Shown: positions 50,487 to 54,641 of the stretch, in pieces | Numbering within the stretch: position 1 is the first letter of the stretch | Layout of the letters: each line of letters opens with the position of its first letter | NCBI GenBank assembly: GCA_965267575.1 | Contig: OZ254086.1 | Location: 1,664,141 to 1,728,140, forward strand | Source: Calditrichales bacterium | Lineage (GTDB): Bacteria > Calditrichota > Calditrichia > Calditrichales > J004 | DNA: 64,000 nucleotides | Direction of reading: 5' to 3' | Position numbers and translations under genes: made by a program | Notes under the pieces: model-generated | Told to the model about the DNA's origin: nothing | Database searches by the model: none | Seen by the model: only the letters and a program-made list of their open reading frames with translations

Positions 50487-50793
50487 GTGCTAATGTGGTT
50501 TTGTGTTATGGTGTTAATGTGCTCCATCCATCTTGATCATGATCGTGATCATACTCCTGATCTACTTTTGCGATCGGGAGATCCCGGTGTGGCAAAAGGA
50601 CGCCAACCGGGACGACAGTCTGAAAAGCTGATTGTCCTGAAACACCGCGCGCCATGATTTAATAAATAAAAAATAGCCAAGCGCAAAATCATAGTCCATC
50701 CTAAAATCAAATTAATCAAATTCCAGACTTTTTTGTGCAATAAAGTTGTGCCTTGTTTATTTTGTTCACTAATCAAACTTACCTCCTAAAAAT
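50487..50793 (-). promoter_or_regulatory. conserved upstream element, copy B (most complete: distal block + hairpin + GATC cluster + octamers)
   Basis: Alignable with copy A (12137-12282) and, as an inverted copy, with C (54454-54641). GATC sites at 50535, 50541, 50547, 50559, 50572 and 50580. It sits in a divergent intergenic region, so it also contains the upstream region of the gene starting at 50794. Confidence 0.8.
50581..50618 (-). repeat. REP-like bulged hairpin repeat, copy 3
   Basis: Plus strand reads ATCCCGGTGTGGC-aaaaggac-GCCAACCGGGACGACAG. Confidence 0.8.
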
Positions 50794-52257
50794 ATGCAAA
50801 ACCTGCAACTGATCTTATTCCTGCTGATTTTCCTGGTGATGGCCGGCAGCATGTTTCTGCGCAAAATACCGGCTTTGCTGGCCCTGCCGCTAATGGCTTT
50901 CCTGATCCCGCTTGCCGGCGGTGTCGATCTGGACAGTACCATCCAGCTTGTTATCGGGGAAGGCGCGCTTAAACTGCACAACGCCTATACTGTAGCCATT
51001 TTCGGAAGCATGCTCAGCATTTTGCTGCAAAAAACCGGCGTGGCCGAAAGCTTTATCAAAAAAGGCGCGGAGCTGGCCGGCGACAATCCCTGGACCATCG
51101 GCGTGTTGATGATGATTTTGATTACCCTGCTGTTTACCACGCTGGGCGGTCTGGGCGCCATCATTATGGTGGCCACCATCGTCCTGCCGATTATGTCATC
51201 CATTGGTATCGGGCCTATGACGGTGGTAGGCATTTTCCTGATCGGCCTTAGTATGGGCGGTATCCTTAACGCCGGCAATTGGGCGGTGTACGTCGACGTC
51301 ATGGGACTTACCGTGGAAGAAATCCGCCCGTTTGCGTTGACCATGTTTGCCATAACCTTTGTGGCCGCGCTGCTCTACATCACCATTCAGTTGTACCGTG
51401 ACGGCCACGACCTGCAGTGGAAACGAATAGGCTGGGGTGCCGCCATTTTTTTAGCGCTGATTGTCGTGGCTGCCACCTTATACCTTAACGCCGGTGATGC
51501 CACCCGTGCCCAACTGGCGCGGTTTGGCGATATTCTCTCCAACGGCCTGAGCTGGCTGGTGGGGATCGGCCTGGCCTTGCTGGCGCTGTTGGTGATCATC
51601 CGTTTTGTGCGCTCGCTGCGTTCGCACTCCCGCGAAATTTACTGGGCGGCCTATTTCACACCGCTGGTGCCGCTGCTGTTGATCCTTGTTTTTGCCATGA
51701 ATTTTATTGCCGCCTTTATCTGCGGGTTGATTTACGGATTTATGGCCACGTACCGCAAAGGCAGTCTTAATACCCTGGTGCAATCGGTGCTGGAAGGCGG
51801 CGCCGTGGTTATGCCCGCCGTAGCCCTGATGCTAGGCATCGGCATGCTGTTGAACGCCATTATCGGACCGGGGCCATCCTGGAGCGGTGAGTGGCCCGTG
51901 TTAACATTGTTGCGTCCCTTGCTTTTGGAGATTGTGCCCGAACAAAGCTGGAGTTATGTGTTGCTTTTTGGCCTTGCCGCACCCCTGGCGCTCTACCGCG
52001 GACCGCTTAACGTCTGGGGTATGGGTTATGGACTGGCCGCCGTGTTTCTGGCCAGCGGTATGCAGCCCGGCGCGGTGATGGGCGTGCTGCTGGCAGTGGG
52101 CCAGGTGCAGGGTATCAGCGATCCGACAAACACGCACAACGTCTGGCTGGCCAATGAAATGCAGCAGGACGTGCAAAAAGTATTGTGGAACACCATCCCT
52201 TACACATGGGCGGTGGCGGTGGTGGGCTTGATAGCCGCTGCAATCATATTCTATTAA
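50794..52257 (+). CDS. polytopic permease (ion-transporter-superfamily-like; GntP/CitMHS-like by appearance)
   Basis: 487 aa, hydrophobic almost throughout (at least 12 TM segments). The family was not identified with certainty. Confidence 0.6.
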   Translation: MQNLQLILFLLIFLVMAGSMFLRKIPALLALPLMAFLIPLAGGVDLDSTIQLVIGEGALKLHNAYTVAIFGSMLSILLQKTGVAESFIKKGAELAGDNPWTIGVLMMILITLLFTTLGGLGAIIMVATIVLPIMSSIGIGPMTVVGIFLIGLSMGGILNAGNWAVYVDVMGLTVEEIRPFALTMFAITFVAALLYITIQLYRDGHDLQWKRIGWGAAIFLALIVVAATLYLNAGDATRAQLARFGDILSNGLSWLVGIGLALLALLVIIRFVRSLRSHSREIYWAAYFTPLVPLLLILVFAMNFIAAFICGLIYGFMATYRKGSLNTLVQSVLEGGAVVMPAVALMLGIGMLLNAIIGPGPSWSGEWPVLTLLRPLLLEIVPEQSWSYVLLFGLAAPLALYRGPLNVWGMGYGLAAVFLASGMQPGAVMGVLLAVGQVQGISDPTNTHNVWLANEMQQDVQKVLWNTIPYTWAVAVVGLIAAAIIFY

Positions 52258-52277
52258 TTTGATAAAGATAAAGAATA

Positions 52278-54431
52278 ATGAGAAAGATAAAGATTGGGAT
52301 TGACGTAGGGGGCACATTTACGCACGCGGTGGCGGTGGATATCGCCGATTTCTCGATTGTGGGCAAGGCGGTTGTACCCACTACGCACAGGGCCAAGGAA
52401 GGTGTTGCCTCCGGCGTGGTGCAATCCCTGGATAAGCTGCTGGAAGAAGCACGTATCAAGCGTGAAGAAGTGATCCTTATCGCTCATTCCACCACGCAGG
52501 CCACAAACGCGCTGCTGGAAGGCGACGTGGCCACGGTAGGCATCATCGGGATGGGCAAGGGCTTTGAAGGCAAAATAGCCGCCCGCGAAACCAACCCTAA
52601 AAACATCGAACTGGCGCCGGGCAAGTTTCTGCAAACGCGCCACGTTTTTCTGGATACGGCAAATGGCCTGAAAGACAACCGGATTAAAGAAGCTCTGCAA
52701 ACGCTGAAAAAACAGGGCGCGGAAGTGATCGTGGCTTCTGAGGCTTTTGGTGTGGACGATACGCGCCATGAAGAACGCGTGATGACAATGGCCCGCGAGA
52801 TGGGTTTTCTGGCGACGGCAGCCAGTACAATTTCGCAGCTTTACGGTCTGCGCATCCGCACGCGCACAGCGGTCATTAATGCCAGCATGATGCCGCGCAT
52901 GCTGGAAACAGCCAACATGACCGAGCAGTCCGTCCGTGAAAGCGGGATTGAAGCGCCGCTGATGATCATGCGTTCGGACGGCGGTATTATGGACATCAAC
53001 GAGATGCGTAAGCGTCCCATTTTAACGATGCTTTCCGGGCCGGCGGCGGGCGTGGCCGCGGCACTAATGTACGCACGTATCTCTGACGGTATTTTCATCG
53101 AAGTGGGCGGTACGTCCAGCGACATCTCAGTGATCAAGAACGGCAAGCCGCAGGTGAAAAGCGCACAGATTGGCGGCAACCGGCTTTTTCTGCGCACGCT
53201 GGATGTGCGCACACTGGGTATCGCCGGGGGCTCCATGCCGCGCCTGAAAGATAACCACTTCGTGGACGTGGGTCCGCGTAGCGCCCATATCGCCGACCTG
53301 GCCTATATTTCCTTCGCCGCCGATGCCGATTTCAGCGCTTTTGAGATGGAATTTTTCCGGCCAAAGGAGGGCGACCCGGAGGATTATTTTTACGTTCAGC
53401 CGCAAAACAACACCACCCGCTATACGATCACGCCAACCGGCGCAGCCAATTTTTTGGGCTACGTAAAAACGGAAGGACACGGCGCGGCGGAAATGTCCGT
53501 TCTGCAATCTTTTTTTAAGGCCTTTTCCCAAAAGACCGGACGCGATGCCGAGGAACTGGCCCGCGAAATCCTGACCCTTAGCGCGGAGAAAATCAAACCG
53601 GTTATTAAGCGGCTGATGCGCGAATATAAGCTGGACCCGGAGATGGTGCGCTTTGTGGGTGGCGGTGGCGGCGCGCCGGCGCTGGTGCCCTTCACCGCGG
53701 AGTTCATGGAAGTGGAGCACACCATCGCTGAAAACACGGAGGTCATTTCCGCCATTGGCGCGGCGCTTGGGATTATTCGTGATTCTGTGGAACGCACCGT
53801 GCTCAATCCAACGGAAAGCGATATTGTTTCCATCCGCCAGGAGGCGATGCAATCGGTCGAAGCTATGGGTGCCGTGCCCGAAAGCATCGAGGTGAGCGTG
53901 GAGGTGGATACGCGCAATAAACGGTTGATCGCCGTAGCCACCGGTTCCAGCGAAATGCGTGCCCGCGACCTGGAGATTGCCGAGAAAAGCGAAGAGGAAA
54001 TCGCTGAAATTGCTGCGCGCTCCCTGAAAACGGACAGGGCCAAAGTGGGGATGGTCGGCAAAACCAATTTTCTCTGCGCTGCGATTGCAGAAATCGAAAA
54101 GAGTTACTTTTTTGGCCTGCTGAAGGAAAAAGAGAAGCGCGTGAGAGTCATCGACCGCGAGGGCGTTGTTCGGTTGCAGGTAAACGATTGCCTTGCAGAA
54201 GAAGTACGCGCCGGAGAAGCCCGGTCGACGATCTCGCGCATGATTGAAGAGCTGACCGCTTATGGCGATGCAGGCGCCCTTGTGCCGGACATTTTTGTGC
54301 TCGTCTCGTCGCGCATTGTCGACCTGACCGGGCTGGTGCAGGAAAGCCAGATCGCCGCGTTGGTGGATATCGAGCTCAAGTCCCTGCCCGACAGCGAAGC
54401 GGTGATCATTATCGCCCAGCGCAAAAAGTGA
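52278..54431 (+). CDS. hydantoinase/oxoprolinase A-type (HyuA-like, ASKHA-fold) protein
   Basis: 717 aa. The N-terminal [17 protein letters not shown] is the Hydant_A_N phosphate-1 motif, and later GGTSSDISV and GGGGGAP glycine loops are present. No HyuB-type partner is visible nearby. Confidence 0.75.
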
Positions 54432-54453
54432 TAGGATAGTGAGTGGGGGGAAA

Positions 54454-54641
54454 GTCTGAACTTTGATTATTTTGATTGCGTGATGGACTATGATTTAGAA
54501 ATCTAAATATCAAGAAATCATTTCATCATATAAATCACGGTTTAGACAGAAGGATCAGGCGTATGATCACGATCATGATCAAGAGGCGTAGGCACATTAA
54601 CACAATAACACACAAACACGTTAACACAATCTTTAATCTTC
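54454..54641 (+). promoter_or_regulatory. conserved upstream element, copy C (distal block + GATC cluster + octamers abutting the ATG)
   Basis: 54454-54496 matches the reverse complement of 50685-50728. 54547-54641 matches the reverse complement of 50487-50570, with 23 nt identical around the GATC cluster. GATC sites at 54553, 54565, 54571 and 54577. Confidence 0.8.

Follow-up and report, generated by a model that had tools for sequence, protein, structure and literature searches.

We asked why two genes in an uncultivated Calditrichales bacterium lie exactly between a pair of mirror-image repeats. In a 64,000-nucleotide stretch of contig OZ254086.1 (positions 1,664,141 to 1,728,140 of the forward strand; hereafter the window), a 3.6-kb segment encodes a 487-amino-acid (aa) membrane protein, the "permease" (50794-52257, plus strand), and a HyuA-like protein with Pfam matches to Hydantoinase_A and Hydant_A_N (52278-54431, plus strand). 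The segment is bracketed by inverted repeats that we call copy B (50487-50728, sense strand minus) and copy C (54454-54641, sense strand plus). An earlier, sequence-only reading suggested either that the gene pair had been inserted as a cassette into an ancestral divergent promoter or that a leader had been duplicated so that both flanking gene groups share control. It is probable, in our view, that a composite intergenic module specific to this lineage is present here in two paralogous copies, B and C, and that each copy lies 5' of the gene that opens one of two gene groups of opposite orientation, both belonging to a conserved glycan/amino-sugar utilisation locus. The mirror-image geometry would then exist because of gene orientation, not because of a mobile cassette.

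A repeat search of the window found that B and C share three collinear blocks in inverted orientation: 46 nucleotides (nt) at 85% identity (50686-50731 and 54451-54496), 32 nt at 97% (50531-50562 and 54553-54584) and 37 nt at 86% (50486-50522 and 54592-54628). This bears out the earlier description of the two copies as mutual reverse complements. When core patterns of the blocks were tested against dinucleotide shuffles, a 24-mer and a 27-mer had no chance matches (expectation 0.00) and a 15-mer had a chance expectation of 0.06. The repeats, previously given as ~190-250 nt long, are thus real, but their arms are discontinuous: in addition to the division into three blocks, global alignment of B with C pairs 173 positions at 80% identity and needs 84 gap columns, and ~55 nt of B (~50563-50617), consisting of a small GC hairpin and its flanks, have no counterpart in C. 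What remains of the seemingly unmatched middle of B comes from a palindrome that C also has, namely from its diverged loop and 3' arm. The distances reported earlier agree with ours. There are 66 nt from the distal block of B to the permease ATG (50794) and 23 nt from the HyuA-like stop (54431) to the distal block of C, and blocks of octamers face the outer genes, abutting the start codon of the FAD_oxidored gene at B (CAT, 50484-50486) and ending 13 nt before the ATG of a DUF5009 gene at C (54642). Two absences that had been noted were also borne out: Pfam identifies no transposase or recombinase among the genes ~10 kb to either side, and there is no sign of target-site duplication at B or C, where flank-versus-flank scores are 7.5 and 9.0 against a control mean of 7.8.

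Comparison with relatives indicates which part of this arrangement is old. The FAD_oxidored gene (48687-50486, minus strand) is the first of a leftward unit of FAD, GHL10, SusC-like and further genes, with Pfam matches to FAD_oxidored, GHL10 and a TonB-dependent receptor with a CarboxypepD_reg domain. To the right, co-directional with the permease and HyuA-like genes, are the DUF5009 gene (weakly NagX-like; 54642-56009, plus strand) and, 3' of it, a GHL10-Golvesin_C-Por_Secre_tail gene that ends at 57904 and whose Por_Secre_tail is a type-IX secretion tail. The permease itself matches nothing in Pfam or NCBIfam. A single close relative, a Joint Genome Institute (JGI) contig here called L120, has an FAD protein 91% identical to that of the window and an identical layout that includes both repeat regions. 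Otherwise the best homologues are ~50% identical and carry the names KSB1, Calditrichota and Zhuqueibacterota; together with the secretion tail, they point to a bacterium of the FCB group. In three distant relatives (L167, L168 and L169, the last labelled Calditrichia in its record; FAD protein 48-50% identical), the 487-aa protein and Hydantoinase_A are adjacent to each other in the same locus. The order in L168 is permease, hydantoinase, DUF5009 and GHL10-Golvesin, with an 87-nt gap at the position equivalent to C, and in L169 the GHL10-Golvesin gene follows 45 nt after the hydantoinase. Inspection of the intergenic sequences of L167-L169, together with profile searches, found none of the palindromes, GATC arrays or CA blocks that we describe below for B and C.

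Because these ~50%-identical relatives keep the gene pair in the locus without the repeats, and because its composition matches the flanks (GC 0.56 and third-codon-position GC (GC3) 0.67-0.70, with codon usage, GC and GC3 all inside the range seen in the genes around them), the permease and HyuA-like genes are ancestral members of a glycan or amino-sugar utilisation locus, and the repeats a lineage-specific addition. The splitting of an ancestral divergent promoter is thereby refuted, on grounds that the sequence-only reading had itself named, and the comparison of GC and codon usage gives insertion no support. Copy C in particular was added inside a co-directional string of genes, because the pair is co-directional with, and tightly spaced from, the DUF5009 and/or GHL10-Golvesin gene in L168 and L169; the gap from hyuA to the next gene is 45-87 nt in the distant relatives versus 210 nt in the window. 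At the other end, all three distant relatives carry ROK and SSF genes in the interval from the permease to the FAD unit, joined in L167 and L168 by an additional GHL10-like gene. The window lineage has none of these at the corresponding junction (50487-50793), and we read the B intergenic region as a lineage-specific rearrangement junction.

What are the added repeats made of? Each leader is pieced together, as a mosaic, from separate families of repeats: an imperfect palindrome that we call PE, a small GC hairpin (present in B and not in C), an array of GATCNN hexamers and a G-poor block of CA octamers. The distal block of the earlier description is the 5' arm of PE, which measures ~95-110 nt at this locus. 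PE_B (50618-50728, minus strand; nhmmer E=4e-14) has the 5' arm GTCTGGAATTTGATTAATTTGATTTTAGGATGGACTATGATT and the 3' end ...AATCAGCTTTTCAGAC, and PE_C (54454-54547, plus strand; GTCTGAAC...GTTTAGAC; E=1.5e-16) occupies the space from 23 nt past the HyuA-like stop. The 5' arm reads GTCTGAAC TTTGATT n4 TGATT n4 GATGGAC TATGATT, followed by a variable loop, and the 3' arm AATCAnnG.. TCAT.. AATCA .. AAATCAyrG TTyAGAC, so that each ~42-nt arm carries four TGAT(T/G) motifs ~9 nt apart. On folding, all four copies in the window and L120 form the same outer helix, with predicted hairpins of -26 to -32 kcal/mol and fold z-scores that are unremarkable in two of the four. In an alignment of 19 copies used for dyad and covariation tests, 85.8% of cells pair when the dyad is in register versus 29-44% when it is slid. 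Conservation is found at the TGATT/AATCA motifs; the 4-nt spacers are variable and non-complementary. On the PE-sense strand G-U cells outnumber A-C cells by 44 to 15, a weak hint since cells are not independent. Rfam has no match in the window at the gathering threshold and none at E<=1 in 50400-54700.

The remaining modules lie between PE and the start codons. B has a small GC hairpin (CCCGGTTGGC...GCCACACCGGG; 50581-50618, minus strand; dG -21.3 kcal/mol, z -3.8), an imperfect GATCNN hexamer array (50533-50566, minus strand) and a CA-octamer block of sense sequence CACATTAACACCATAACACAAAACCACATTAGCAC that abuts the FAD_oxidored start codon (50487-50522, minus strand). In C, the GATCNN array (54552-54584, plus strand; both arrays were located by repeat and GATC-cluster searches) is followed by a CA-octamer block with a short tail that reaches the DUF5009 ATG (54592-54641, plus strand). 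A third copy, A (12137-12279, minus strand), consists of hairpin (12243-12279), GATC array (12182-12225) and CA block (12137-12181), has no PE and precedes a gene for an unrelated HD-domain protein (11696-12136). What had looked like a degenerate PE arm in copy A is the 3' end of the upstream DUF2784 gene. As a side observation, the similarity of A and B continues into the genes behind them, whose first 10 coding nucleotides are the same (ATGAATCTAT; 12127-12136 and 50477-50486) although the proteins, HD domain and FAD oxidoreductase, are unrelated. A profile of GATC array plus CA block matches only A, B, C and a weak, CA-block-like orphan remnant (20565-20604, minus strand; E=0.012) that is antisense to its downstream gene. 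Clusters of at least four GATC within 45 nt are likewise found only at A, B and C in the 64 kb. The CA blocks are built of G-poor CACATTAA-like octamers, end at the start codon or no more than 13 nt from it and are predicted to be unpaired. Read directly, the start regions of the three genes behind A, B and C have no Shine-Dalgarno sequence, and by eye the leaders contain no Bacteroidetes-type TTTG / TAnnTTTG pair at the right spacing.

The small GC hairpin, CCCGGTTG...CACACCGGG (CCCGG..TG...CACACCGGG), is a family of its own. Present in B and A and absent from C, it has four copies in the window (12243-12279, minus; 21743-21781, plus; 50581-50618, minus; 58010-58041, plus), of which those at 21743-21781 and 58010-58041 stand alone without other modules. 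Their folds have dG of -16 to -21 kcal/mol and z of -2.6 to -3.8; the inner stem varies between copies yet still pairs, and none is followed by a U-tract. Three of the four lie 100-170 nt past the end of a co-directional gene, and these hairpins could be terminator-like or like repetitive extragenic palindromes (REPs).

The close relative allows us to follow the modules over a short evolutionary distance. At the A site of the relative (L178), the hairpin is identical at 51 of 52 positions and the CA block at 53 of 60, and the GATC array is 24 nt (four hexamers) shorter; the arrays at B and C also differ between the window and L120. The B region of L120 contains two complete PEs and a fragment, and it is the fragment that is the orthologue of window PE_B, which itself shows ~70% identity to each of the other copies. 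At L120's B, the PE adjoining the leader is 93.9% identical to L120's own PE_C, versus only 83.5% between the orthologous PE_C copies. For the GATC/CA leaders, B and C are 86.2% and 85.2% identical within the two genomes, versus 83.0% and 80.2% between orthologues, and they share genome-specific states, for instance GTATGATCACGATCATGATCAAGA in both window copies. Because identity between B and C within a genome exceeds identity between orthologues, and because such states are shared, we conclude that the inverted copies exchange sequence within a genome, over a distance of ~4 kb, via gene conversion or PE copying.

Based on these comparisons, we propose that the modules would work in two parts. 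The part that can fold into a hairpin, which is the small hairpin at A, PE at C and both at B, would come first and would end or insulate upstream transcription or stabilise RNA. The GATC array and CA block would come next, as a leader, and would supply a promoter-proximal region and an unstructured, Shine-Dalgarno-independent site of ribosome loading for the downstream gene. PE itself may have arrived as a selfish element of the kinds discussed below. We infer this division of labour because A and C share the same order of co-directional gene stop, hairpin, GATC array, CA block and ATG. Several results weigh against our interpretation. Consensus scans of the leaders find no sigma-70-type promoter and no intrinsic terminator. 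Covariation in PE scores 0.103 versus a shuffled mean of 0.103, with 244 of 500 shuffles at or above the observed value, and the RNAalifold covariation term is +0.09; the putative hairpin role of PE is hence argued from its dyad symmetry. Leader orthologues are 80-83% identical, more than four-fold degenerate sites (71%) and less than other intergenic stretches (86-100%), showing no special constraint. Finally, the window has two copies of PE, both at this locus, and this restriction may leave room for a locus-specific role, such as an operator array.

Beyond the window, PE is a dispersed family. A metagenome search with a pattern of 23 specified bases from the PE 5' arm matched 45 contigs. 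Solo PEs there are complete palindromes of 86-118 nt with arms of ~42 nt, frequently in tandem, and many lie directly 3' of the stop codons of MacB/FtsX-type permeases. In at least 14 loci, a GxxExxY gene (TIGR04256, E=1e-39; PF13366) adjoins or lies inside PE, and in L122, L151 and L153 the gene sits exactly between two PE arms on the opposite strand. GxxExxY genes between PE arms were noted at L122:2824-3322, L151:2052-2543, L153:37-1089, L132, L138, L180:2768-4177 and L182:2955-3435. The association was also recovered from the protein side: a search that started from close GxxExxY homologues led to PE in Plebeiibacterium marinum (Bacteroidota, Marinilabiliales) and in a Prolixibacteraceae metagenome-assembled genome (MAG). 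The MAG has arm, gene and arm immediately after an FtsX stop codon, and P. marinum packs six PEs into 1.4 kb, with a 60-nt pseudo 3' end of a MacB/FtsX gene behind each. A scan of viral contigs gave no match to PE. Metagenome PEs show an apparent 2:1 bias in orientation relative to neighbouring genes, but two things confound it: the GxxExxY gene of the element itself and the relatedness of FtsX insertion sites. PF13366 is a large family (>8000 matches at E<=1e-10) whose function was listed as unknown in a 2012 survey of PD-(D/E)XK proteins, and in the full-text literature we found nothing linking GxxExxY/PDDEXK_3 to repeats. As a separate observation, a 23S_rRNA_IVP (four-helix-bundle) gene lies near GxxExxY in L180 (1645-2016), where it separates the membrane-fusion gene of an ABC-type efflux operon from the ATPase gene, and represents a second small multi-copy open reading frame (ORF) family in the intergenic gaps of that operon type.

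Several PE insertions are flanked by long direct repeats. Among 29 distinct PE copies, eight have flank-to-flank similarity above the 95th percentile of the control, and at least five have abutting direct repeats of 38-75 nt, involving four different target sequences (75 nt in L151; 48-65 nt in L122, L137 and L152; 58 nt in L138; 38 nt in L132). The targets are the 3' end of FtsX, the 5' end of an hsdM-like gene, the 3' end of another gene and, in L138, unannotated sequence. In L151, for instance, 75 nt that include the ATG and 22 codons of the hsdM-like gene are present once on each side of a single PE, and the gene is intact. These repeats are far longer and more variable than ordinary target-site duplications; the PE copies of the window and L120 have no flanking direct repeats. 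A possible, tentative interpretation is that PE represents selfish elements of the FCB group (Fibrobacteres, Chlorobi, Bacteroidetes) that are bounded by palindromes and form a family not described before. Its full form would carry a GxxExxY gene of the PD-(D/E)XK superfamily between ~42-nt TGATT-rich arms, and its solo form would be an 86-118-nt hairpin. Insertion or amplification would duplicate 38-75 nt of target, which can include the last or first ~20 codons of a gene, so that the gene stays intact. In the window lineage, two solo copies would have become fixed beside a portable GATC/CA leader and would now be part of the control regions of two gene groups in the glycan-utilisation locus.

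Among the alternatives, shared cis-regulatory DNA fares best, and we still consider it unlikely. Under this explanation the TGAT(T/G) motifs of PE and/or the GATC array bind a regulator or give methylation-dependent control, and the FAD-GHL10 and DUF5009-GHL10 units are co-regulated. PE and leader do occur at both units in both genomes, ordered and oriented alike with respect to the start codon, conservation within PE is confined to its TGATT/AATCA motifs rather than to its spacers, and GATC clusters are restricted to the three leaders. However, PE is found in unrelated contexts (after MacB/FtsX ends, beside an hsdM-like gene, in tandem arrays and around GxxExxY), the leader also precedes the HD-domain gene, and the ROK regulator of the distant relatives is absent from the window locus. 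We identified no regulator or methyltransferase, although no search was aimed at a GATC methyltransferase. The earlier idea of a leader duplicated for shared control therefore survives in part: B and C are paralogous, with exchange within a genome, but each is a mosaic of independent families without specificity for GHL10. The two GHL10 units may share control, yet such control would not be GHL10-specific, because the leader precedes the HD-domain gene and PE is dispersed in unrelated contexts.

Less probable again is a structured cis-regulatory RNA or leader peptide, in which PE would be a riboswitch-like fold in the 5' untranslated region or an upstream ORF in the GATC array would control translation. 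The PE-sense strand is the mRNA sense at B and C, hairpins are predicted there (the -26 to -32 kcal/mol given above), and G-U cells exceed A-C cells. The GATCAT units also create short upstream ORFs (MITIMIKMDGAH, MIMIRIKIKRGGAH and MSKIMIRIKSGAAH) in the B and C leaders of both the window and L120. For instance, one of 12 codons lies in the GATC array of window B (50514-50552, minus strand) and another ORF at window C (54563-54652, plus strand). In three of the four B and C copies the upstream ORF has 12-14 codons and ends at the TAA of GCACATTAA. However, it is frame-shifted in window C and absent from both A copies, and its ATG is a by-product of the GATCAT units; we judge this ORF to be probably incidental. 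Against a structured RNA stand the lack of an Rfam match even at E<=1 and of covariation, the unremarkable z-scores of two of the four folds, and the flanking genes, which are on the opposite strand in most metagenome PE copies.

It is very improbable that B and C are the ends of a mobile cassette or composite transposon that brought the permease and HyuA-like genes into a divergent promoter. Inverted repeats of ~190-240 nt do stand at both ends of the 3.6-kb two-gene segment, and their PE component belongs to a family that looks mobile elsewhere. However, the pair is kept in the same locus of ~50%-identical relatives without repeats, Pfam and NCBIfam find no transposase or recombinase in or near the segment (in L120, ~10 kb to either side), target duplications are absent at B and C, composition equals that of the flanks, the repeat orientation tracks the outer start codons, and the same leader precedes the unrelated gene behind copy A. 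Equally hard to credit is an invertible segment, in which homologous or site-specific recombination between the repeats (32 nt at 97%, ~80% overall, with apparent exchange between copies) would flip the permease/HyuA pair as a switch, since the window and L120 agree in the orientation of the segment, as do L168 and L169 when it is judged against the FAD unit, no invertase lies nearby, and inversion would swap the leaders and leave the genes that face them unchanged.

Returning to our proposal of paralogous composite modules, we compared their parts with known systems. The closest described analogue of PE is the REPIN-RAYT system, made up of REP/REPIN elements (REP doublets that form hairpins) and RAYT (REP-associated tyrosine) transposases (Bertels and Rainey 2011, PMC3116915). 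Like REPs and REPINs, PE is a dispersed, extragenic imperfect palindrome with two inverted arms capable of forming a long hairpin, is intergenic, often just past gene ends and sometimes in tandem, and has a gene-carrying version with arms around a small gene, here of a nuclease superfamily. It is multi-copy across 45 metagenome contigs and two Bacteroidota genomes, with two copies in the window. Unlike REPs, PE has ~42-nt arms with four TGAT(T/G) motifs at ~9-nt intervals, and its sequence is unrelated. The defining feature of REPINs, a single-copy RAYT between inverted REPs, was not found; RAYT is a Y1 (HUH) transposase present once per genome, whereas the gene enclosed by PE is GxxExxY (PF13366, PD-(D/E)XK), which has many copies. 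Also unlike REPINs, PE has 38-75-nt flanking direct repeats at several insertions and only two copies in the 64-kb window.

Miniature inverted-repeat transposable elements (MITEs) offer a second comparison. The Correia elements of Neisseria are MITEs that lie near start codons and can supply promoters, terminators and processing sites. Solo PEs resemble them in being small (86-118 nt) and non-coding, with terminal inverted repeats, in their intergenic positions near start codons, and in their presence or absence and rearrangement between close relatives, as between L120 and the window. Unlike MITEs, PE has no short target-site duplication of fixed length (none in the window and L120; 38, 48-65, 58 and 75 nt elsewhere), and no recognised transposase family is associated with it. 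We also considered an integron attC site and rejected it: the PE termini GTCTGAAC / GTTCAGAC exceed the core RYYYAAC ... GTTRRRY by one base, and the ORF, when present, lies inside the palindrome. No integron cassette array or integrase was noted in the PE loci, although no systematic search was made.

The GATC arrays and CA blocks also have counterparts. Clusters of GATC act as epigenetic switches in pap and agn43, and contingency-type tracts of short tandem repeats are known in promoters and leaders. The arrays described here are similar in that four to six GATC lie within ~45 nt, only at the three leaders in the window, and in that a hexamer array upstream of genes differs in unit number between close relatives, by four units (24 nt) at A and in the differing arrays at B and C. 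They are unlike contingency tracts in that the units are imperfect and the copies few, and any on/off role is putative; neither a Dam-type methylase nor a competing regulator was identified, although the analysis established only the clustering of GATC. In a similar way, G-poor CA- or CAA-rich translational enhancers include the omega leader of tobacco mosaic virus (TMV) and CA-repeat enhancers in E. coli. The CA block shares with these a stretch of 35-50 nt that is nearly free of G, predicted to be unpaired and placed before a start without a Shine-Dalgarno sequence; unlike them, it is octamer-periodic (CACATTAA-like), and an enhancer role is putative. A search of viral contigs with the CA block gave only chance 18-mers. 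A scan of genome contigs with GATCAYGATCAYGATCAAGA matched mainly MAGs of Opitutales and none that matched the window, and we set these aside as a parallel phenomenon with a different element. Opitutales are unrelated to the window lineage, and their intergenic architecture is similar in style: MAGs such as OZ219851.1 carry intergenic mosaics of (GATCAC)n, TTCCTAA heptamers, CTTTGTGC octamers and others, and one MAG gave dozens of matches.

One further intergenic stretch of the locus stood out. The 85-nt spacer between the GHL10 gene and the TonB-dependent receptor gene of the leftward unit (47439-47523 in the window; 12964-13048 in L120) is 100% identical between the two genomes, while four-fold degenerate sites are 71% identical between the window and its relative. 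This suggests that the spacer may be a strongly constrained regulatory or RNA element.

Part of what we describe is ordinary, namely that divergent genes are preceded by paralogous intergenic repeats; what is unusual is the PE family, its link to GxxExxY and the long flank duplications. For the interpretation of genomes, this locus indicates that genes framed by inverted repeats are not necessarily a mobile cassette, and that such repeats can be paralogous modules before divergent gene groups in an old locus. For the organism, an uncultivated bacterium of the FCB group, it shows that 5' regions are assembled from parts that can be reused (hairpin, GATC array of variable length, G-poor block) and that these parts are exchanged between sites 4 kb apart. 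The link between PE and GxxExxY is a lead that reaches past the window: a protein family listed as of unknown function is tied to a specific palindromic DNA with long flank duplications, which gives it a concrete, testable functional hypothesis.

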